From: an uncultured Gemmatimonadota bacterium
GTDB lineage: Bacteria; JAAXHH01
Assembly (NCBI GenBank): GCA_951812955.1
Contig: OX638340.1
Span: 1,216,001-1,280,000, forward strand
DNA: 64,000 nucleotides
Reading direction: 5' to 3'
This document shows, in pieces, positions 7,094 through 63,145 of the stretch. The translations under genes and the position numbers were made by a program. The notes under the pieces were generated by a model that saw only the letters and a list, made by a program, of their open reading frames with translations, was not told the DNA's origin and made no database searches. Within the stretch, counting starts at the first letter, position 1; each line of letters begins with the position of its first letter.

Positions 7094-7720
7094 CTAACGC
7101 AACTGTACTTCTGATCCACCCGGCAACTGGTGACCGACACAGGCAAGAACCTGGGCGGCAAAGCGATACGTGAGGCCCCAGAGCACGGGCCCTTCACCGT
7201 CCAGGAGATCGATGGCGCATACTTCCCGTTCTCCCCATTCGCCCACGACTGGGGTAGTCACGTACCGGTTCTGATCCATTAGACCAGCAAGCGGGAACCA
7301 GAATGCGTCCTGGACCTCGTGGTTAAGTGATAACTCGAACCCATGCGTAAGACAAAACACGAAAGCGGCGACGTGCACCTTGCTGAGATGTGTAGCCTGG
7401 TCGTCGAGCCGGCAGACGTAGTCCGCCCCGGTAAGGTCGAGACCGGTTTCCTCCCGCGTTTCACGTATGGCGGTTTGCCGGGGATCGACATCGGTAGCGT
7501 CGATCTTCCCGCCGGGAAAACCGATATGGCCGGACCATGGATCGCCGTCGCGCCGCGCACGCACCAGGAAGAGCAATTCCATTCCCCCAACCGCCTCGCG
7601 CAGAAGGACGGCAACGGACGCCGTGAGCGCGCCGGCGGCGGGGTCCAGCAACCTGGCGCGCCTGACGCGCAGCTTTTCAATCAGTGCTCTTTCTTGAATC
7701 ATCGCACCGCTGCTCTCCAT
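7094..7720 (-). CDS. NUDIX hydrolase (CoA pyrophosphatase-like)
   Basis: Nudix box GGKIDATDVDPRQTAIRETREETGL. The start is trimmed to ATG 7720 (MESSGAM...) because the longer ORF overlaps the upstream PhyH gene. Confidence 0.75.
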   Translation of the reverse strand: MESSGAMIQERALIEKLRVRRARLLDPAAGALTASVAVLLREAVGGMELLFLVRARRDGDPWSGHIGFPGGKIDATDVDPRQTAIRETREETGLDLTGADYVCRLDDQATHLSKVHVAAFVFCLTHGFELSLNHEVQDAFWFPLAGLMDQNRYVTTPVVGEWGEREVCAIDLLDGEGPVLWGLTYRFAAQVLACVGHQLPGGSEVQLR

Positions 7721-7772
7721 AGGCAGAACATTTCCACTCGCGACCTGTTTTTCGTGTGCGGCTCCCGACGAT

Positions 7773-8630
7773 TCATGACCGTGCGAACACGACCTGGTTT
7801 CGGGGATGGTCGGCGCGCTGGCCCGGACGCCTGTTGCCCAGGTTGGCATCGATGACCGGCCGGTTTTCCTCGCTGCACGCCGAATCGTCGATACAGAGGC
7901 CGTCCTCATAGAACGTGATCCCAATTGCTTCGCGGATGCGGCACGACGTGTTGGCCCGGGCGCCGTGCACGACCCAGTGGCTGTGCAGGGTGGCGTCGCC
8001 AGCGGGAATCTCCTCTTCCACCACGGGGTTCCGCCTAGTGCGGATGTGGCCTTCGAAGTAGGATTCCGATTTGCGGTGGATCCCCCTGGGGCCCAAGACT
8101 CTTGACCTGTGGGTACCGCTGGCGAATCGCGGCGGCCCCATGTCGATAGCGGTGTCCACGAGGGGTATCCACATGGTGAGCACGTTGTCCGAATGAAGGG
8201 GCCAATGCGGACCGTCCTGGTGCCATGGCGTGAGCCAGCTACCGGGTTCCTTGAACATCGCCTTGTCGTAGTAGATGCGCACCGCGTCCACGCCCATCAG
8301 GTCGGCCGCGATCTTCCCGAAACGGGGCGACTGGATGAACCGCGCCGCACGCTCGTCGGCTTCCCTCAGGTTGAAGGTCTGCATGAATACGCGGGAGAAA
8401 TCATCCTCCGGCCGGTCGCTCATCTTTTTCGCCCCGGCAAACCGATTGGCCGTGACCGACTTCAACACTTCGCGGTACACGTCGATCTCTTCCCTTGAAC
8501 AAACGCCACCCAGATGGACGTGGCCGTTCTCGCGGTATTGGCGTACGTGGTCTGCGGTCAGGGAGTATTCCGACGAAAGATCCGGTCTGAGGGTCGGTTC
8601 GCACGTCGTCATGGATAGAAATCCTTCCAC
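7773..8630 (-). CDS. Phytanoyl-CoA dioxygenase (PhyH) family Fe(II)/2-oxoglutarate oxygenase
   Basis: 285 aa. N-terminal LTADHVRQYRENGHVHL and WHQDGPHWP (the iron-binding HxD context) are typical of PhyH. Confidence 0.65.
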   Translation of the reverse strand: MEGFLSMTTCEPTLRPDLSSEYSLTADHVRQYRENGHVHLGGVCSREEIDVYREVLKSVTANRFAGAKKMSDRPEDDFSRVFMQTFNLREADERAARFIQSPRFGKIAADLMGVDAVRIYYDKAMFKEPGSWLTPWHQDGPHWPLHSDNVLTMWIPLVDTAIDMGPPRFASGTHRSRVLGPRGIHRKSESYFEGHIRTRRNPVVEEEIPAGDATLHSHWVVHGARANTSCRIREAIGITFYEDGLCIDDSACSEENRPVIDANLGNRRPGQRADHPRNQVVFARS

Positions 8631-8823
8631 CCGGCGGATAAAGTCGCCGGTTAGTCTGGGACTGGATCGCAGGTAACGGCAACTAACCTTTTCGCCCTGG
8701 GAAGGTCAAGGAGTTTGCCCCGCTGACGGGAGACCGGCGAACTGAACATTGCAGGGCTCTCCGGAAACGGTTTTACAGGCATCCGCACTTGAAAGTTGAC
8801 AGACCGAATCCGTCCACCAGCCC

Positions 8824-8852
8824 CCCACACTTGACAGGTCGCATCGGTTCGT
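8824..8852 (+). promoter_or_regulatory. Candidate sigma70-type promoter upstream of accA
   Basis: TTGACA (8824-8829), a 17-nt spacer, then TTTATT (8847-8852). A second TTGACA lies about 30 bp upstream. Confidence 0.3.
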
Positions 8853-8948
8853 CTTTATTTGAGGAAACGCGGCGAGACGATCTTGCAGCACACGAGTCCG
8901 CCGCGATTGCAGTTTATGAAACCCGGACGGCAAAGCCCGGAGCATACC

Positions 8949-9950
8949 ATGGAAGAAAACGGCCCGATACTCGAATTCGAAAAGCCGATTTACGAGCTCG
9001 AAAAACGCATCGAGGAAATGAGAAACTATGCGGTGACCGAAAACCTCGATGCCCTGGCCGATGAGATCCAGCGCCTGGAAGAGGAAGTGGTCCGTCAGCG
9101 GCAGAAGACCTATGCCAACCTAACCCGGTGGCAGCGCGTGCTCATCGCCCGCCATCCGAACCGCCCCCACACGCTCGATTATATAAACGGGATGATGACG
9201 GATTTCGTCGAGCTGCACGGTGACCGGTCTTTCGGGGATGACAAAGCCATGGTCACCGGACTGGCGAAAATGGACGGACGGCCCATCGCCGTCGTGGGCC
9301 ACCAGAAGGGAAAGAACACCAAGGAAAACGTGATGCGCAATTTCGGCATGGCGGGTCCCGAGGGATACCGCAAGGCCCTGCGCATCATGAGGCTGGCCGA
9401 GAAGTTCGACATGCCGGTCCTGTCCCTCGTCGACACCCCTGGAGCCTATCCCGGCGCGGGTGCCGAGGAACGGGGCCAGGCGGAAGCCATCGCACGGAAC
9501 ATTTATGAGATGGGACGCCTACGTGTACCGATCATCGTCATGGTCATCGGCGAAGGCGCCAGCGGCGGCGCCCTGGGCATCGGCGTGGGCGACCGGGTCA
9601 TCATGATGGAGAACGCCTGGTATTCGGTGATCAGCCCCGAACCCTGTTCCACCATCCTCTGGAAAGACCAGGAGAAGGCCGCGGCCCGCAAGGCGGACTG
9701 CGCGGAAGCCCTCCGCCTTTCTGCCACCGACCTGCTACAGTTCGGCGTCATCGACGAAATCGTCCCCGAGCCCTTCGGAGGCGCGCACCGCGACCACGAA
9801 ACATCCATTGCCAATGTCAGAAAATCCATCCTCAAGGCGTTGCACGAGGCGGGCGAACAGTCCGTCGAGGAGCGCCTAGAAGCCCGGCTGGAAAAGTACA
9901 GCAGCATGGGCGCATACGATGTAGTACCCACCGCGGACGACCAATCGTAA
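8949..9950 (+). CDS. accA: Acetyl-CoA carboxylase carboxyltransferase subunit alpha
   Basis: Begins [24 protein letters not shown]... It has the carboxyltransferase alpha signature ([49 protein letters not shown]). The 363-aa ORF's upstream extension is unlikely. Confidence 0.9.
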
Positions 9951-9973: not shown

Positions 9974-11161
9974 TTGTTAAAAGCCATCCAGGGCGGCTCG
10001 ATCATTAACGGTAAGGGTGAAATCCCGATTCCCAATGGGATGATCCTGTTGGACGGCAATCGGATAGAAGCCGTCGGTTCCCGCGATAGCCTTCCCATTC
10101 CCCGCGACGCGGAAGTCATCGACCTGGGTACGGCCACCCTCCTCCCCGGTCTCATCGATACCCACGTGCATCTCGTCATGAACGCGAAGGAGGACTGTGT
10201 AACCTCCCTGGCGCGCAAGAACGCAGTGGAGTCGGTGGTCGAGGCCGCCGGCAACGCCCGCCGCGCTCTGCGGGGCGGCGTGACGACCGTGCGGGACTGT
10301 GCCGACGTGTTCGGCGTAACGCTGACGTTGAAGCGAGCCATCGACGCGGGTGAGCTCGAAGGTCCGCGCATTCTCGCCTGCGGACTGCCCATCACCACGA
10401 CGGCGGGACACCTTCACTACATGGGGATCAGCGCGGACAGCAAGGAGGAGGTGCTGAAGGCCGTGCGCACGGTGGTCACCATGGGGGTGGACTGGGTCAA
10501 GGTGTGCGCGACCGGCGGAGGTCTGACCCCCGACAGCAACGTCCGTCGCGCCCAGTATTCGGCGGAGACGTTGTCGGCCCTCGTCCGGGACGCCCATCGT
10601 CTCGGAAGGAAGGTCGCCGCCCACGCCCACGGGACCGAAGGCATTTTGAACTGTGCCATCGCCGGCACCGACAGCATCGAGCACTGTTCGTGGATGGGAG
10701 AGGAAGAAGGACACCGCTACGATGAAAATGCCGTCGATCTGATTCGGAAGAAAGGACTCTACGTCAGCCACACCATCACCGGACCGAGGACGGCTTCGCC
10801 GGAAGAGGTGGAAGAACTGCTGAACAGCGAACTAGGCGAGCGGTTCGCCTTGCAGCGGCGTACGCTGGAAGAAGGCGTGCGCATGGTCATATCCAGCGAT
10901 GCGGGGGTCATCGACACCCGATTCGAGGATTTCACCGGAGGCCTCGTCATCGCCGTCCAGTGCTGCGGCTTCTCACCAATGGGCGCCATCATCGCCTCCA
11001 CGAGCCGTGCGGCCGAAATGCTGGGCATGGAAAACCGGATCGGCTCCCTGGAACCCGGTAAAAGCGCCGATATCCTGGCGGTCGACGGAGATCCGCTTCA
11101 GGATATCAGCGCGATCCGGCGGATCGTCGGCGTGTTCAAGGACGGCGAGCGATACGTGTAA
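9974..11161 (+). CDS. Amidohydrolase family protein (imidazolonepropionase/Xaa-Pro-dipeptidase-like metal-dependent hydrolase)
   Basis: 395 aa. It has the PGLIDTHVHL metal-binding HxH motif and typical amidohydrolase C-terminal motifs (AAHAHG..., DAGV). TTG start. Confidence 0.75.
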   Translation: MLKAIQGGSIINGKGEIPIPNGMILLDGNRIEAVGSRDSLPIPRDAEVIDLGTATLLPGLIDTHVHLVMNAKEDCVTSLARKNAVESVVEAAGNARRALRGGVTTVRDCADVFGVTLTLKRAIDAGELEGPRILACGLPITTTAGHLHYMGISADSKEEVLKAVRTVVTMGVDWVKVCATGGGLTPDSNVRRAQYSAETLSALVRDAHRLGRKVAAHAHGTEGILNCAIAGTDSIEHCSWMGEEEGHRYDENAVDLIRKKGLYVSHTITGPRTASPEEVEELLNSELGERFALQRRTLEEGVRMVISSDAGVIDTRFEDFTGGLVIAVQCCGFSPMGAIIASTSRAAEMLGMENRIGSLEPGKSADILAVDGDPLQDISAIRRIVGVFKDGERYV

Positions 11162-11327
11162 TCCGCAGGAACCCTTCCGTATTTCTCGACAACTGCTCCC
11201 TGCGTTCGCGACCTCCGCACAGTATACCGCGACATCCACGCTGTATATACATTGTATCTACTGAAACTACCTCGCAGAAACCTAGTAACCATACGTGTTT
11301 CAGCACGCCTGGATGGCGCCATGAGGG

Positions 11328-12500
11328 CTAGGCTATCGTACGGGGTTTCAGTTCGCCTGGACGGGTGAATCGAGCGAGCGCGAAGAGGCTAGTGTCGACT
11401 GGCGGCGTTTCGTCGTACAGTTTGGCGGCCAGGATCTCGCCCAGTACCGGGCCGAACTTGAACCCGTGCCCCGAAAACCCCGCGGCTACGACTACGTGGC
11501 TGTAATCGGGATGGCGATCCAGGATGAAGTGGTAGTCCGCAGAATTGGTGTAGAGACAGTGTTTCACCGTGACGGGATTGCGGAAAAGGTGGGGACATCT
11601 TCGGCCGACGAATGCCTGCACCGCGGCGAGATTGACGCGATCCACGTCTTCGGGGTCATCGGCATCGACGATACGGCCGGTTCTATGGCAGCCGGCTTTC
11701 ACCCCAGGCACCTGTACCTGGGGCACGCAGTAAAAGGGATCGGCGGTGTGATAATCGATCACGTTGGGCATGGCACCCGCCTCATGCGAGACCGGCCCGG
11801 CCTGCGGAAAGTAGGCCAGCAGTTCGCGCGTGATCACCAACTTGGCTTTGATCCCCAGTGCGTCAAGCCACCGGCCCGTCCATCCACCCGCTGCCAGCAC
11901 CAGGCTGGCAGCCGACCAGGAGCGCCCGTCGGACGCTGTTACCTCGACACGGTCTTCGCGCGGATCAATCGCAGCGACTTCCGTTTCCGTCAGGGCGTCC
12001 ACGCCATCTTCCCGGACGCAGTCCCACATACTCCGAACCAATACGTCCGCGAAAAGTACCGCGCTGTCGGGCTGGTGGATCGCTTCGCTTGTCCGTGGCA
12101 GGTTCAATTGAGGGAAACGGCGGGAAAAGGCAACGCCGGCCAGCCGCTCGTAGGGTAGTCCGCATTCCCGCAACCGGGTTTCAAGGATACCCAGTACCTC
12201 CGCGTCTGCTGGCGCCAGGTTGCAGATCCCGGTCTGTCTGAACAGCGGCCTGCCCAGGCGTTTCGCGAGGTCTTCCCAGAACCGGAACGCCCGCGACGCC
12301 ATTTCGACGTACACGTTCTCTTCGTAATCGAAACGAAACATCCGGCTGTCGCCGTGCGAACTGCCGTGTTGGTGTGCGGGCGCGTATCTTTCTAGCAGAA
12401 GTACGCGTTTTCCGCGCCCGGCCAGGACATAGGCAGACGAGACGCCGACGACCCCTCCGCCGACCACGATGACATCGTACTGGTTCTCCCGCCGGCTCAC
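11328..12500 (-). CDS. FAD-dependent oxidoreductase, monomeric sarcosine oxidase / N-methyltryptophan oxidase (MSOX/MTOX) family
   Basis: The Rossmann motif DVIVVGGGVVG is present. HGSSHGDSRMF and the C-terminal GFSGHGFKFGPVLGEILA closely match MSOX-family signatures. Confidence 0.8.
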   Translation of the reverse strand: MSRRENQYDVIVVGGGVVGVSSAYVLAGRGKRVLLLERYAPAHQHGSSHGDSRMFRFDYEENVYVEMASRAFRFWEDLAKRLGRPLFRQTGICNLAPADAEVLGILETRLRECGLPYERLAGVAFSRRFPQLNLPRTSEAIHQPDSAVLFADVLVRSMWDCVREDGVDALTETEVAAIDPREDRVEVTASDGRSWSAASLVLAAGGWTGRWLDALGIKAKLVITRELLAYFPQAGPVSHEAGAMPNVIDYHTADPFYCVPQVQVPGVKAGCHRTGRIVDADDPEDVDRVNLAAVQAFVGRRCPHLFRNPVTVKHCLYTNSADYHFILDRHPDYSHVVVAAGFSGHGFKFGPVLGEILAAKLYDETPPVDTSLFALARFTRPGELKPRTIA

Positions 12501-57489: not shown

Positions 57490-58254
57490 ATGTCACGAAG
57501 GCGCGTATTCATTGGAGACCTGACACGTAAGGAGTTCCGCGAAGGGATCGAGGACGGTACAATCAAGGCCGCCATCGTGCCCACGGCGGCTACGGAACAG
57601 CACCTCGAACACCTTGAAATGATCCACGACACGGCCAGTGTCGCTTACATGGCTGAACACGCGGCCCTTGAGTTGTATCCCCAGGTCGTCGTCGCTTCTC
57701 CCATCGCCATTGGCGTATCGGAACACTGGATGGAACACAGAGGAACGCTGACGGTCCGTCCCGAGATCTTCACCGAATACGTCTACGATGTGTGCGATGC
57801 CCTGAAGCGGGGCGGGATAACCAACATCCTTATTCTGAATGGACACGGCGGCAACGTAGTCCCGATGATGAACCGGATAGAGGACTTTCGGCGACGACTC
57901 GGCGTCAACGTGCGCTTCAATTCCTACTGGGACACCTACCCCACGGATTTCGTGTATCGGTACATGGAACGCGAAGCACTCCCCGGACACGCCGACGAAT
58001 ACGAGACCTCCATGGCCATGGCCCTCTTCCCGCACCGGGTCCACCCGGACGACATGGAAATGGAAAGCACCGCCCGTTTTGGAACGAAGGAGAAGGGCGA
58101 AGCTCTCGCGCCCGTGGCGGTGAACGGCGTGGCGGACTTGCTGATCCGAATGATCGCCGGGGAGGAGATCGACCTGGAACCCCGCACGTTCCGTGCAGCC
58201 GGCGCCCAGTCGATGATCCGGGATCGGCTCATCGAGGCGAGATCTGAGCAATGA
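57490..58254 (+). CDS. Creatininase family protein (second paralog)
   Basis: VPTAATEQHLEHLEMIHD and LILNGHGGN match the family. Confidence 0.7.
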   Translation: MSRRRVFIGDLTRKEFREGIEDGTIKAAIVPTAATEQHLEHLEMIHDTASVAYMAEHAALELYPQVVVASPIAIGVSEHWMEHRGTLTVRPEIFTEYVYDVCDALKRGGITNILILNGHGGNVVPMMNRIEDFRRRLGVNVRFNSYWDTYPTDFVYRYMEREALPGHADEYETSMAMALFPHRVHPDDMEMESTARFGTKEKGEALAPVAVNGVADLLIRMIAGEEIDLEPRTFRAAGAQSMIRDRLIEARSEQ

Positions 58255-58300
58255 CGGTTGATAGGAGAGGGCCGCGACAACGGCGTCTCTGCTTGCGAAA

Positions 58301-58390
58301 AGCGCATCAAGGTGTGCAACGTATGAGAAGCGCATCAAGGTGTGCAACGTATGAGAAGCGCATCAAGGTGTGCAGCTTATGAGAAGCGTG
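58301..58390. repeat. 3 x 28-bp tandem repeat (AGCGCATCAAGGTGTGCAACGTATGAGA)
   Basis: Units lie at 58301-58328, 58329-58356 and 58357-58384 (2 substitutions), with a partial fourth. It is intergenic, upstream of the lipoprotein pair. Confidence 0.85.
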
Positions 58391-58424
58391 TACCAGTAGG
58401 TGTTACAAGAACTGGAGGTAGGGA

Positions 58425-59105
58425 TTGACAGACCGCAATGCCCATCCGTACTATACGAATCCGCGCCGGGGAGGTTCCTTTCCGGTACCTGTTTCAGCAG
58501 TGTTTGTCGTTCTGGTTGTGTTCTTCGTCGGGATTTCGGTCGCGTTACTCGCGTGTTCGGAATCGTCGCCAACGGAACCGGAAATGGGAGAGCACGGAAC
58601 GAACGGCGGGGAATCAGGTGAGGGCGGTGAAGGAGGTTCAGGTGAACATGGTGAAGGTGGCGAGGGTGGCGAGGGTTCTGGTGGCGAGGGTGGCGAAGAA
58701 TCCGGCAACGCGCTGACAAAGGATCAGACCTTTGATTCGGTGCGGAAGGGTGCTCGCCTCGTCCTGCGTTACGATTCCACCGCCGACGCCTTCGTCGGGA
58801 CTGTGTCGAATACCACCGATTCCACCCTGGTCCAGGTCCGTGTCGAAGTGCACCTGTCCAACGGCACGGAACTGGGCCCCACTACGCCGGTCGACCTCGC
58901 CCCGGGTGGGTCGGTGCCCGTCACACTGTCCGCCATGGGAGAATCGTTCGACGGCTGGACCCCTCACGCCGAAGTGGGTCCCTCCAGCGGAAGCGGCGGC
59001 GAGCATGGAAGTGGCGGAGAGTCAGGTGAGGGCGCCAGCGAGTCAGGTGAAGGCAGCGGGGGCGAACATGGTGGAAGTGGTGAAGGCGGAGGTGATGGGG
59101 GTTGA
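58425..59105 (+). CDS. Hypothetical lipoprotein with Gly/Glu/His-rich (GEGGEHG) repeat tails flanking a conserved ~90-aa core
   Basis: A TTG start is preceded by GGAGGT. The signal peptide has an LLAC|S lipobox. Acidic repeats EHGTNGGESGEGGEGGSGEHGEGGEGG occur at both ends. The core is RKGARLVLRYD...FVGTVSNTT...VRVEVHLSNGTELGPTTPVDL...GWTPHAEV. Confidence 0.5.
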   Translation: MTDRNAHPYYTNPRRGGSFPVPVSAVFVVLVVFFVGISVALLACSESSPTEPEMGEHGTNGGESGEGGEGGSGEHGEGGEGGEGSGGEGGEESGNALTKDQTFDSVRKGARLVLRYDSTADAFVGTVSNTTDSTLVQVRVEVHLSNGTELGPTTPVDLAPGGSVPVTLSAMGESFDGWTPHAEVGPSSGSGGEHGSGGESGEGASESGEGSGGEHGGSGEGGGDGG

Positions 59106-59209
59106 ATGTACAGCGCCATACCCAGCATCACCGCGACATTGATGCGGCATTGGACGAGGGAACAGTAAAGGAGGACGAATTGTCAACATCCAATATACGT
59201 TCAAACGGT

Positions 59210-59983
59210 ATGAATCCCCAGCCGGCGAATCACGCCCCGGAATCGGCTTTAACCGCGTTTGCTTTTTTGAGTGTACTCTTCGCCCTGGTTTCGGTCACGG
59301 CCTTGGCGTGTTCAAATGACGCGGGTGAAAACCAGTCCACGTCCGATACGGCACGGATGGTAGCTGTCGATGCGCAGCAGAACGGCGAAGCATCGGAGTC
59401 GCGTGGCGGAGAAAGGGCTTCCAGCGGGGAATCAGGTGAGCACGGCGGGGATGGCGAAGCGATGGAATCCGGCGGGGAATCAGGTGAGTACGGTGGGGAT
59501 GGCGGAGAAAACGAAGGCGAGGGGGGCGGTAGTGACGAAGGCGAAGAATCCGGCGCGTTGCTGGCCCTGGATGAGACCTATGATACGGTACGCAGAGGCG
59601 CCCGGCTTATCCTGAACTACGACGCCGGTACCAATTCCTTCGTCGGAACGGTGTCGAACACCACCGGTGAAACCCTTCGCCGCGTCCGGGTCGAAGTGCA
59701 CCTGTCCAACGGCACGGAACTGGGCCCCACGACTCCTGTCGATCTCACTTCGGGTGAGATGACCGAAGTTACCCTTTCTGCAACGGCAGAACCTTTTACC
59801 GGCTGGACGCCCCATGCCGAGGTAGACACGGGGGACGGTAGCGGAGGCGAGCATGGTGAAGGCGGTGAAGGCGGTGAAGGCGGTGAAGGCGGCGGTGAGC
59901 ATGGTGGACGCGGTGAAAGCAGCGAAGGTGGTGGAGAGGACGGCGAGCACGGTGAAGGTGGCGAGGGTGACGGGAGCGCGTAA
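59210..59983 (+). CDS. Hypothetical lipoprotein paralog with Gly/Glu/His-rich repeat tails
   Basis: Starts at ATG 59210, or at TTG 59180 preceded by AAGGAGG. It has an LAC|S lipobox and the same conserved core (RRGARLILNYD...FVGTVSNTT...VRVEVHLSNGTELGPTTPVDL...GWTPHAEV). The C-terminus is made of GEHGEGGEGGEGG repeats. Confidence 0.5.
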   Translation: MNPQPANHAPESALTAFAFLSVLFALVSVTALACSNDAGENQSTSDTARMVAVDAQQNGEASESRGGERASSGESGEHGGDGEAMESGGESGEYGGDGGENEGEGGGSDEGEESGALLALDETYDTVRRGARLILNYDAGTNSFVGTVSNTTGETLRRVRVEVHLSNGTELGPTTPVDLTSGEMTEVTLSATAEPFTGWTPHAEVDTGDGSGGEHGEGGEGGEGGEGGGEHGGRGESSEGGGEDGEHGEGGEGDGSA

Positions 59984-60191
59984 GGCGGTGAAAGAGGCGA
60001 AGGCGGCGGGGGGCGACGAACACGGAACAGGCGGTGAAGACCGCGGCGAACATGACGGAGGCTGAGACTGGTTCGTATGCCATGTACCAGAATCCGTGAA
60101 AAACACCGCTTGATCGTACTCCTCAATGGACCTATTGTAACAACCAGCACATCAACATTACCGCCTGATAAAGAGTGATCGGAAAAGCAAA

Positions 60192-61292
60192 GTGCAACCA
60201 ACGCCAGCCAACCCAAGCCTGAAACAAATCCCGCTCCTGACCGCGAGCCAGATCGCCCGGTTCAAGCGCGACGGCTTCCTCGTTCTTCCCGCCGCGCTAG
60301 ACCCCGAACTCTGCCGCCAGGCCAGGGACGCGATGTGGGCCGCGGTGGCAACGCACCATCCCGTCATGAAGCGCGACGATCCCTCCACCTGGGCGCCGTT
60401 CAACGATGAAGTAAGCGGCCAACTTAAAGCGAAGCAGCCCGAGATCGGCGGGGACCCCTATTTCTTCACCGAAGGCCACCGCTTCTATGTCCGAAATGGC
60501 ACCGAGCCACTCATGCTCGATCTGGCCCCCAGACCCTTGTGGCAGGTCGCCGAGCAATTACTTGGTCAGGGCACGGTGGTATGGCCCGCCGGAGCGGATG
60601 CGTCCGGCATGACGACGGGACCGTGCTTCATGTCCGACGAAGCGGTGAGCGGTCTGGCCAGCCATGGAGTCAAAGAGACCGGGCAATGGCCTGAGAAGGG
60701 ATCCTTCACCACGGAAGAAGCGCTGCGCCTGCCCAGGACCGGTCCGGTGTGGTCGACCGGACAAGGGACACGCGGTTTGTACTGCACCCTGCCCAACAGC
60801 CCGTCTCCCGGTCCGGATTACCGCCGCGCCCATTCGGACGGGGTCTGCTACGGACGCGTCCGGTTTCAGGTAACCGCTTATGTCGACGACCTGCCGGCCA
60901 ATTCCGGTGGCTTCACGGTGTGGCCAGGCAGCCACAGACGAATCTGGCGCGAGCAGTGGCAGACCTTTCTCGAAGGTGAAAAGTACACGGACGACAACCT
61001 GGCGGAACGCAAGGCCGACGGTTATAACGATCCCGTCATCCAGCGCATCAAGGCCGACACCCGACCCGTTGATTGCCACGGTCCCGCCGGCACGGTGGTC
61101 TTGTGGCACACCAAGATCCTGCATATTGCCGGACAGAATACCTCCTCAGATATCATTCGCCAGGCAACTATCTACGGTTTCATGAAAACGCCGGAATCCC
61201 TTCCCGATCCGCTTGTAACGGACCACACCAACATGGATATCTGGCGTGACTGGTCCGATGAAGTGCGGGCTGTTGATGAGCGCCAGGAATAG
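60192..61292 (+). CDS. PhyH family Fe(II)/2OG oxygenase
   Basis: 366 aa. N-terminal LTASQIARFKRDGFLVLPAAL with PhyH-like architecture. GTG start. Confidence 0.55.
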   Translation: MQPTPANPSLKQIPLLTASQIARFKRDGFLVLPAALDPELCRQARDAMWAAVATHHPVMKRDDPSTWAPFNDEVSGQLKAKQPEIGGDPYFFTEGHRFYVRNGTEPLMLDLAPRPLWQVAEQLLGQGTVVWPAGADASGMTTGPCFMSDEAVSGLASHGVKETGQWPEKGSFTTEEALRLPRTGPVWSTGQGTRGLYCTLPNSPSPGPDYRRAHSDGVCYGRVRFQVTAYVDDLPANSGGFTVWPGSHRRIWREQWQTFLEGEKYTDDNLAERKADGYNDPVIQRIKADTRPVDCHGPAGTVVLWHTKILHIAGQNTSSDIIRQATIYGFMKTPESLPDPLVTDHTNMDIWRDWSDEVRAVDERQE

Positions 61293-61433: not shown

Positions 61434-61661
61434 ATGGTCGAACTCAAAGTCCGAAAATTCGGCAACTCGCTCGGCGTCGTCCTGCCCAAGGAAGTCGTCA
61501 ATCGGCTGCGCACGAAGGATGGGGAGCCACTGTTCCTCACCGAAGGACCGGACGGCAGCTACAAGTTGACGCCCTACGATCCCAACTTTGCAGAAAAGAT
61601 GGAGATGGCAGAAAAGATCATCGACCGCTATCGCAACACACTCCATGTCCTGGCCAAGTGA
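61434..61661 (+). CDS. AbrB/MazE/SpoVT-family antitoxin (type II TA)
   Basis: 75 aa. VKVRKFGNSLGVVLPKEV is the swapped-hairpin AbrB-type DNA-binding motif. Its stop overlaps the toxin's GTG (GTGA). Confidence 0.7.
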   Translation: MVELKVRKFGNSLGVVLPKEVVNRLRTKDGEPLFLTEGPDGSYKLTPYDPNFAEKMEMAEKIIDRYRNTLHVLAK

Positions 61662-62053
61662 CGGAGCCGGTCTGGATAGAAACACGCGATGCACTGATGT
61701 TGCACGAGCGCCTTATTGTGCTACACGGTGGTGCGGCGGGGGTGCGCGACAAAGGCTTGCTGCAATCAGCTCTGGCCCGAGCGCGTCAAATCTACGCGTA
61801 TTCGGATACGCCAGATCTCATCGAAATGGCGACGGCCTATACAGTGAGCATCGTGCGCAACCATCCATTTGTAGATGGCAACAAGCGTACCGGCTTTGTA
61901 GTCGGAATCCTGTTTCTTGAGCTGAACGGATTTCACTTCACCGCCACTCAAGCGTGCGCGGCTCAGTCCGTTATAGAACTAGCAGGCGGGTCACTTGATG
62001 AAGCGGGCTACACGGCGTTCCTGCGCGCGAATGTCGAAACGCTGAAAGGATGA
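61658..62053 (+). CDS. Doc/Fic-family toxin (death-on-curing type)
   Basis: 131 aa. HPFVDGNKRTG is the Fic/Doc active-site motif HxFx(D/E)GNKR. Confidence 0.8.
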   Translation: MTEPVWIETRDALMLHERLIVLHGGAAGVRDKGLLQSALARARQIYAYSDTPDLIEMATAYTVSIVRNHPFVDGNKRTGFVVGILFLELNGFHFTATQACAAQSVIELAGGSLDEAGYTAFLRANVETLKG

Positions 62054-62212: not shown

Positions 62213-63145
62213 ATGTCGACCATTACCAAACCGGGCAACGAAACCGGTGCCGATTCAGCTGTCGAGCCCGCCGCCGCATTTGACGCCGACTCCACATCTG
62301 CCGCCGCCCCCGTTCCCATGACCGAGGAGCAGAAGTTCTTCTTCGACCTGAAGGGCTGGATCCTCGTGCCCTCCGTATTGTCGGAGACCGAGATCGAGGA
62401 AATGAAGGCCGAAGCGTACGCTGCGGTAAAACCGGACTATCAGGGTAAAAACAGCGACCTGCAACAGGGCTATCAGGGCATGCTGGCCAACCTGCTCGAT
62501 CATCCGGCCGTGGTGGGCATTCTGAACGAGATCCTCACCGAGCCGCCCTTTGTGGGGGACGACCATTACGGATTCCGCTGCGAGAACTCCTTCCTCATGG
62601 TGCGGGAACCCGGCTGGGAGTCGACTGTTAAGGGCACCGGGCTGCCCCATGTCGTGCGCCCTCCCCAGCAGGCCAACGCCATGCGCTACCAGGTGCAGGG
62701 CGGCAAGATCTTCGCGGGACTGACGCGCGTCGTATGGGAGTTGGAGGAAGTCCGGGCGGGGTACGGCGGCACCTCCTTTCTGAGCGGTTCGCACAAGGCT
62801 CATTTCAATTACGGCGGACCGGACCGGTACCGGCCCAACATCAGCGAATCGCCCTGGGAGGAAAGTCTATACGCCGCCATGGAGGATTACAGTTGTCCGC
62901 CGGGGTCGATGCTGGTCTTCACCGAAAGCCTCATCCACGCTGCGAACGATTGGACCAATCCGGACAACCGTCGATGCGCTGTATTCAACTGCTACAACTC
63001 GATCTGGGCGCAGTGGCACCGGCTCAATCTCGACCACGAGGTTATCGATAAGATGCCACCCAAGCGGCAGTCCCTCTTCCGCGGTGCGTGGCAACTGGGC
63101 GGCGACGGGAATCGTACGTACTCGGCGGACAATCGGTCGGTGTGA
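62213..63145 (+). CDS. PhyH-like Fe(II)/2OG oxygenase (related to the 16948/17775 pair)
   Basis: 310 aa. FFFDLKGWILVP resembles FEFDLNGYI, and GSHKAH is present. Confidence 0.55.
   Translation: MSTITKPGNETGADSAVEPAAAFDADSTSAAAPVPMTEEQKFFFDLKGWILVPSVLSETEIEEMKAEAYAAVKPDYQGKNSDLQQGYQGMLANLLDHPAVVGILNEILTEPPFVGDDHYGFRCENSFLMVREPGWESTVKGTGLPHVVRPPQQANAMRYQVQGGKIFAGLTRVVWELEEVRAGYGGTSFLSGSHKAHFNYGGPDRYRPNISESPWEESLYAAMEDYSCPPGSMLVFTESLIHAANDWTNPDNRRCAVFNCYNSIWAQWHRLNLDHEVIDKMPPKRQSLFRGAWQLGGDGNRTYSADNRSV

Follow-up and report, generated by a model that had tools for sequence, protein, structure and literature searches.

The DNA analyzed here, referred to as the window, is a stretch of 64 kb from an uncultured Gemmatimonadota bacterium (contig OX638340.1, positions 1,216,001 to 1,280,000). 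Near its right end it carries two adjacent rightwards-transcribed open reading frames, ORF1 (58425..59105) and ORF2 (59180..59983), that are real tandem paralogues under purifying selection and not chance reading frames. They encode lipoprotein precursors of 226 and 267 aa in which a conserved core, distantly related to the FxLYD domain, is flanked by disordered tails rich in Gly and Glu, and they belong to a large family in which the His residues of these tails recur within the tripeptide Gly-Glu-His (G-E-H). We propose, tentatively and with a probability of about 45%, that these are extracytoplasmic, lipid-anchored lipoproteins that act as cation-binding buffers or sensor accessories.

We regard the two genes as real because homologue clusters are numerous and because pN (nonsynonymous divergence) is well below pS (synonymous divergence) in comparison with a sister strain. 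The exact ORF1 protein is present in public assemblies, and through this match two closely related sister strains were identified (L004 and L005), which serve for the divergence estimates and for a strain alignment of window positions 58255-60192, a region that was also translated. The pN and pS values against L005 are 0.014 and 0.073 for ORF1, and 0.037 and 0.095 for ORF2. An alignment of the two proteins over 204 aa has 47% identity (E = 2e-43), with 58 identities in the 84 aligned core residues; no further copies of the family were found in the window, and the exact ORF2 protein, in any of three start variants, has no match in the protein collection searched. The cores are 71% identical overall at the nucleotide level and include a 41-nt stretch in which the two genes do not differ (plus strand, 58842..58882 in ORF1 and 59690-59730 in ORF2). 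The corresponding sequences of other lineages have 4-12 mismatches to this 41-mer, and the identical run is possibly a short gene-conversion tract between the tandem paralogues.

Both genes appear to use TTG start codons. As read from the sequence, a Shine-Dalgarno GGAGG lies 6 nt upstream of the ORF1 start (58414..58418, plus strand), and AGGAGG (59169..59174, plus strand) lies 5 nt upstream of the TTG at 59180 in ORF2. For ORF2 this codon is the likelier start, because of that ribosome-binding site and because the signal peptide then has a positively charged n-region; the ATG at 59210 has neither, and the longest form, from 59102, would give 293 aa and corresponds to the start chosen by the gene callers for the ORF2 equivalents in L004 and L005. 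When the TTG starts are used, Arg residues are present in the n-regions of both proteins. The ORF1 signal peptide (58425..58556, plus strand) ends in a lipobox L-L-A-C, and PS51257-type patterns place the lipobox Cys at residue 44 in both proteins, within FVGISVALLAC-S in ORF1 (codon 58554-58556) and FALVSVTALAC-S in ORF2 (codon 59309-59311, plus strand). The ORF1 lipobox of L005 reads L-L-G-C at the same position, and a lipobox-like Cys is found in 135 of 184 single-domain relatives. The n-regions of both window proteins are unusually long. The pattern matches support both as lipoprotein-type genes, with products predicted to be exported and lipid-anchored. A first-pass annotation of the window had described a tandem pair of lipoproteins with lipoboxes and a shared core, and this description is borne out.

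The tails of the mature proteins, all encoded on the plus strand, are Gly/Glu/Ser-rich at the N-terminus and Gly/Glu-rich at the C-terminus. In ORF1 the N-terminal disordered tail has 54 aa (58554..58715) with 21 Gly, 14 Glu and two G-E-H motifs, and the C-terminal tail has 42 aa (58977..59102) with 21 Gly, seven Glu and two G-E-H motifs. The corresponding ORF2 tails have 85 aa including the lipobox Cys (59309..59563), with one G-E-H and one G-E-Y, and 52 aa (59825..59980), with 26 Gly, 12 Glu and three G-E-H motifs. Glu and Gly dominate and His is sparse: only 8 of the 233 tail residues of the window proteins are His, and every one of these lies within a G-E-H tripeptide. The mature proteins have a calculated isoelectric point of about 4.1, and a calculated net charge at pH 8 of about -28 for ORF1 and -41 for ORF2 that shifts by about 4.5-5 units between pH 8 and pH 6. 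Across the 184 single-domain relatives, on which the family-wide tail statistics are based, 439 of the 503 tail His (87%) have Glu directly before them, in most cases within GEHG, GEHD or GEHS, and 134 members have at least two tail His. Because this holds against a Glu content of only about 20% in these tails, we conclude from the sequence comparison that a short linear motif is conserved within Gly/Glu filler, beyond mere composition. A typical member is a lipoprotein of 130-160 aa with (SESGEH)n-type repeats before the core, GGEHG-type repeats after it, or both. The GEGGEHG-type repeats that the first-pass annotation placed on either side of a core of about 90 aa are therefore not peculiar to the window, as homologues in many phyla carry such tails with the same preference for Glu-His.

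The core itself is 87 aa long in both proteins (58716..58976 in ORF1 and 59564..59824 in ORF2, plus strand). An AlphaFold2 model of the ORF2 core (window 59519-59887, using an alignment of 122 sequences) has a seven-strand all-beta sandwich in which 88 residues have a predicted local distance difference test (pLDDT) score of at least 90; the flanks score below 55 and are predicted to be disordered. The subfamily has a near-invariant signature, R.GARL...YD...F.GTV.NTT...VRVEVHLSNG.ELGPTTP.DL.PG...W..H.EV, and the invariant or near-invariant positions include Y34, D35, N47, R57, E59, H61, the ELGP turn, W96, H99 and E101. From the strand periodicity of the predicted secondary structure we infer that R57, E59 and H61 lie on one face of strand 4, and that T97, H99 and E101 share a face of the last strand. 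Fold searches return the biofilm scaffold RbmA, the lipoprotein SadB and adhesin domains among the best structural neighbours, and the fold is a generic Ig-like beta-sandwich. In Chloroflexota and Acidimicrobiia, relatives occur with two to three core domains fused in one lipoprotein of about 500 aa (L025 7746-9314, L029 6891-8384, L045 7788-9329 and similar genes). Many of these fused relatives have a much more divergent, Cys-containing middle domain (SSPI...LCYVQAEPHLK...FDGYVVH.EVFDCGG), which retains YD, E59, usually H61, ELGP, PG, H99 and E101.

Sequence searches with the core alone returned 747 homologue clusters at 90% identity, with up to 74% identity to the query, and a further homologue search returned 2,055 clusters at 90% identity. 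A profile search of 1.84 billion representatives gave 1,002 clusters (50% identity) at E<=1e-3, 821 of them at E<=1e-10. Searched with profile hidden Markov models, as the first-pass annotation had suggested along with structure prediction, the family has no Pfam model: neither the two ORFs (E<=1) nor the 122 aligned relatives (E<=0.01, the threshold used for all profile scans of relatives) match a Pfam family, apart from scattered weak matches to Ig-like DUFs. The NCBIfam FxLYD model (NF038353) is matched by 121 of the 122 members, at best with E = 1.8e-8. The window proteins score 20.5 bits (ORF1), 18.9 bits (ORF2) and 20.8 bits (the ORF2 core fragment), below the curated cut-off of 23 bits, and their alignments cover the 71-position model only in part. 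NCBI applies the name 'FxLYD domain-containing protein' to members above the cut-off, in Wukongibacter, Poribacteria and Planctomycetota. The pattern is one of consistent remote similarity, as expected of superfamily-level kinship with the FxLYD domain. Like FxLYD proteins, the window proteins have a small all-beta extracytoplasmic module; they differ in having a signature of their own, the Gly/Glu/G-E-H tails and sub-cut-off scores. We know of no function for the FxLYD domain itself. The literature searched contains no mention of FxLYD and nothing relevant for G-E-H-type peptide strings, and a sequence search of the PDB gave chance matches only. The first-pass annotation's view that the family is undescribed thus holds for Pfam and the literature but not for NCBI, where some members already have a domain name. 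What is new here is a family with a near-invariant core, the G-E-H tail motif and an operon of family gene, regulator and kinase, none of which had been described before; metal binders of the disordered, acidic or His-bearing extracytoplasmic kind, and lipoproteins that serve as accessories of two-component systems, were already known.

A genome scan with one genome per species identified at least 589 loci. The best 80 of these (L006-L085) have core identities of 56-79%, and nearly all are in metagenome-assembled genomes (MAGs) of sponge-symbiont type that belong, by label, to at least eight phylum-level groups: Gemmatimonadetes, Latescibacterota, Chloroflexota, Poribacteria, Acidimicrobiia, Spirochaetia, Vicinamibacterales and Planctomycetota are named, together with one isolate. 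The label series SB066x, PCPOR and APA are confirmed as sponge-symbiont bins, and other labels look like those of sponge-project MAGs. The family is not exclusive to sponges, and members are also found in MAGs of Desulfobacterales and Planctomycetota. The sole carrier in culture among those found is Wukongibacter baidiensis DY30321. Tandem arrays of two to three genes (in Poribacteria and L002) and fusions of two to three domains are common. The level of core identity across phyla, together with the concentration in sponge bins, suggests horizontal spread within sponge microbiomes, and points to a function useful in the sponge habitat. Without a Pfam model or a KEGG Orthology entry, such a family would be overlooked by annotation-based enrichment analyses.

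Neighbouring genes were clustered for 82 non-redundant loci, and the only neighbour that recurs across lineages is a two-component system; other recurrent neighbours are lineage-specific. Thirty of these loci have genes for an OmpR-type response regulator (~225 aa) and a HAMP-HisKA-HATPase sensor kinase (~469 aa) directly downstream of the family gene and in the same orientation. By group, 10 of 12 Dehalococcoidia and 6 of 10 Caldilineaceae have this arrangement, as do other Chloroflexota, a single Acidimicrobiia and a single spirochaete, in which genes overlap by 4 bp. The Firmicute Wukongibacter is also counted, with an unrelated gene of 455 aa between the family gene and the two-component system. 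In L025 the family gene at 7746-9314 has its cognate kinase at 10123-11532. The best model for the linked kinase is BaeS_SmeS, matched over its full length at 240 bits against a cut-off of 500. The periplasmic domain of this kinase contains an acidic insert that varies and usually ends in a conserved Phe-His, as well as a conserved ESHGFL motif. The linked regulator scores 153 bits with cztR_silR_copR (TIGR01387; cut-off 279) and so falls outside the heavy-metal subfamily as defined by that model. The first-pass annotation had proposed a search for metal-resistance or uptake genes near relatives; none recurs, and the two-component system is found instead.

We favour the cation-binding reading because the tail motif is conserved, the core has conserved Glu and His residues, the linked kinase has a matching acidic and His-bearing insert, and the genes are linked in operons. 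A rigid Ig-like core of about 87 aa, flanked by disordered polyanionic Gly/Glu tails with recurring G-E-H, would be held outside the cytoplasmic membrane, where the mature protein would bind divalent metal cations. The tails could act as low-affinity, multivalent capture or buffer elements, and the exposed invariant core residues (R57, E59 and H61; H99 and E101) could form a tighter metal site or a surface for docking a partner. In many lineages this partner is probably the sensor kinase of the downstream BaeSR-like two-component system, with the lipoprotein acting as co-sensor or accessory in the way that ZraP serves ZraSR and SaeP serves SaeRS. No two-component system is adjacent in the window lineage, where the gene lies between creatininase-family and PhyH genes and has been duplicated.

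Several observations weigh against this proposal. The window tails are poor in His, and 27 of the 184 relatives have no tail His at all. There are no profile matches to CopC, CusF, PCuAC, YcnI, ZraP/CpxP/Spy or SilE/PcoE, either for the two ORFs (E<=1) or for the 122 relatives, and the fold searches gave no match to CopC, CusF, PCuAC or ZraP-type proteins. The linked kinase scores 162 bits with the heavy-metal sensor model cztS_silS_copS (TIGR01386; cut-off 292.6), and is far below the cut-off of every NCBIfam model. No two-component system is adjacent in the Poribacteria (0 of 17 loci) or in the window lineage. Genes for metal transport, resistance or chaperones are absent from the surroundings of the window locus and do not recur across the 82 loci, and Rfam searches found no riboswitch, including metal riboswitches, and no known RNA in or near the locus. 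Cation binding, the site residues of the core and the interaction with the kinase are all inferred. The first-pass annotation had read the Glu-His repeats as low-affinity metal-binding tails; the motif is indeed kept across phyla, but no metal genes, riboswitch or metal-binder fold stand beside it.

Two other readings of the family have to be set against this one. The core may bind a ligand of the host, the matrix or the envelope, with the tails as hydrated polyanionic spacers, so that the proteins would be symbiosis or adhesion factors among sponge symbionts. Such a role would suit the generic Ig-like fold with its RbmA, SadB and adhesin-domain neighbours, the spread of the best 80 loci through sponge-symbiont-type MAGs of at least eight phylum-level groups, the tandem arrays and two- to three-domain fusions that are typical of surface proteins, and the prevalence of Glu and Gly over His in the tails. 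However, a pure spacer leaves unexplained why 87% of tail His have the G-E-H context, as well as the two-component operon in 30 loci and the invariant Glu/His/Arg face of the core, and there are members in a free-living Firmicute isolate and a Desulfobacterales MAG; we therefore consider a surface or matrix role unlikely. It seems similarly doubtful that the lipoprotein is a signalling accessory with no involvement of metals, modulating the BaeS-like kinase under envelope stress or in response to pH through Glu-His tails that could titrate near neutral pH. The family gene, regulator and kinase do share an orientation and are separated by short gaps or overlap, the kinase is most like the envelope-stress and efflux regulator BaeS, lipoproteins co-transcribed with two-component systems are known (SaeP, CseA and LpqB), and the calculated charge shift between pH 8 and pH 6 is in keeping with such a role. 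But 52 of the 82 loci, the window included, have no adjacent two-component system, none was found anywhere in the 64 kb, and many tails are too poor in His for a large pH-dependent charge switch. A broader version of the cation-binding reading, which we think rather improbable, is that the family is a horizontally exchanged module enriched in sponge microbiomes, serving as a cation or pH co-sensor of the BaeS-like system where the two are linked, and elsewhere, as in the window, as a stand-alone envelope cation buffer required for living in the sponge mesohyl. A silica or biomineral role, by analogy to the His/Asp-rich glassin, was set aside, since several of the host sponges named in the labels (Aplysina, Ircinia) have no siliceous spicules.

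Comparison with characterized systems offers analogies and no kinship. ZraP, which is small and extracytoplasmic and binds metal through Gly/His-rich motifs, is genetically linked to ZraSR and modulates it. ZraP, CpxP and Spy are alpha-helical LTxxQ proteins, with no relationship in sequence or fold to the beta-sandwich proteins described here, which have no Pfam match to those families. The gene order also differs from that of ZraP and ZraSR, as the family gene lies upstream of the regulator and kinase genes and is co-oriented with them, and the regulator is OmpR-type. SilE and PcoE, periplasmic 'metal sponges' under two-component control, are further examples, with the ZnuA loop, the CopB N-terminus, Hpn, and the tails of SlyD and UreE, of low-affinity binding of transition metals by disordered acidic stretches that contain His. 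All of these are far denser in His (or Met), whereas the window family is dominated by Gly and Glu with His nearly always in G-E-H; no homology of any of them to the window proteins was detected, and no metal-resistance genes lie near the window locus. The lipoprotein genes of SaeP-SaeRS, CseA-CseBC and LpqB-MtrAB are in operons with a regulator and kinase, an arrangement analogous to that of the 30 loci, but these lipoproteins have no sequence similarity to the family and lack acidic Glu-His repeat tails, and the linkage is absent in the window. If the tails do bind metals, the approximately 1,000 clusters at 50% identity would constitute a novel class of metal buffers or co-sensors in the envelope, and a widespread one, and the operon of family gene, regulator and kinase is a testable handle on what the linked two-component system senses.

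The locus contains several tandem repeats that vary between strains. The 28-bp tandem repeat reported upstream of ORF1 in the first-pass annotation is real: AAGCGCATCAAGGTGTGCAACGTATGAG is present in 3.2 copies with 96% matches (Tandem Repeats Finder) at 58300..58388, between the creatininase-family gene and ORF1. It occurs nowhere else in the window, where 0 matches are expected by chance, and is absent upstream of the orthologues in other lineages. There are three copies of the unit in the window, two in L005 (5904-5959) and one in L004 (5932-5959). The repeat sits where the ORF1 promoter should be, and its copy number might alter expression. A promoter and terminator scan gave nothing above shuffled expectation. 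Within the coding regions, a 9-bp repeat GGTGGCGAG lies in the ORF1 N-terminal tail (58656-58696, plus strand), where L005 has one unit fewer, in frame, and GGTGAAGGC is present in 4.2 copies in the ORF2 C-terminal tail (59855-59892, plus strand), where the window has one unit more than L004 and L005. All indels in coding repeats among the three strains are multiples of 9 bp and in frame.

The first-pass annotation had pointed out that the same kind of repeat continues in a different frame beyond the ORF2 stop, and had concluded that the 3' end is unstable, either frameshifted or phase-variable. The continuation is present: after the TAA (59981..59983, plus strand), the +1 frame of the window reads AVKEAKAAGGDEHGTGGEDRGEHDGG*, ending at 60065, and the repeats of the tail and a G run do vary among strains. 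The instability extends to repeat length and not to the reading frame, and the reading of ORF2 as frameshifted or phase-variable is contradicted. The window and both sister strains, assembled independently, have the same TAA. The 26 codons that follow it in L004 and L005, GGERGEGDGGDEHGTGGEDRGKHDGG*, are in the ORF2 frame and end at a TGA equivalent to 60063-65, which argues for loss of the tail by a nonsense change and not by a frameshift. The G run (60008-60013; G6 in the window, G5 in both sister strains) lies 25 nt past the stop and cannot affect the protein, the coding repeat units are 9 bp long and every coding indel observed is in frame, and ORF2 is still under purifying selection. Because the nearest single-copy orthologues (L013, L016 and L018) end in ...GGEHGTGG*, we interpret the 82 bp that follow the stop (59984..60065, plus strand; in frame in L004 and L005, +1 in the window) as the relic of a longer ancestral ORF2 C-terminus, severed by a nonsense change and left to drift. 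Readthrough of the TAA was judged unlikely, as the relic is already frameshifted in the window. The locus is a clear example of repetitive tail-coding DNA that evolves by gain and loss of in-frame 9-bp units and by nonsense truncation, and not by frameshifting.

The neighbours of the pair in the window are metabolic genes, including those for pyridoxal phosphate-dependent enzymes, the creatininase-family gene (57490-58254) and two PhyH dioxygenases (60192-61292 and 62213-63145), together with a MazE-Doc pair. In the closest lineages (L006-L018) a single copy of the family is found in the same setting between creatininase-family and PhyH genes, and the tandem pair is specific to the window, L004 and L005. 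The ORF2 core is 77-78% identical to those of L009, L013, L016 and L018, and the tails start alike (DTGDG...GEHGEGGEGG); these comparisons identify ORF2 as the orthologue of the single-copy gene. In L006, L007, L008, L010 and L014 (at about 7700-8500) an ATGA joins the stop codon of the creatininase-family gene to the start codon of the family gene, and in L008 the end of the family gene also runs about 4 bp into the PhyH gene. These overlaps imply a translationally coupled three-gene operon in the closest lineages, in which cytoplasmic enzymes would be produced together with an exported lipoprotein.

Several PhyH paralogues and genes of the mandelate racemase family lie close together here (window 60192-61292 and 62213-63145; L005 12168-12672), and the PhyH gene that adjoins the locus belongs to a 58-member cluster in related genomes of ~3.7-3.9 Mb. 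Between the two PhyH genes is a strain-variable islet (window 61434-62053), which contains a MazE-type antitoxin and a Fic/Doc toxin in the window and in L005, and DUF6088, AbiEii, ApeA_NTD1 and DUF433 genes in the same slot in L004 (9204-12602). At the extreme left end of the window a gene for a SelB-type selenocysteine elongation factor (85-2088) is directly followed by a tRNA-Sec (2162-2255; Rfam, 70.6 bits), and the organism therefore uses selenocysteine.

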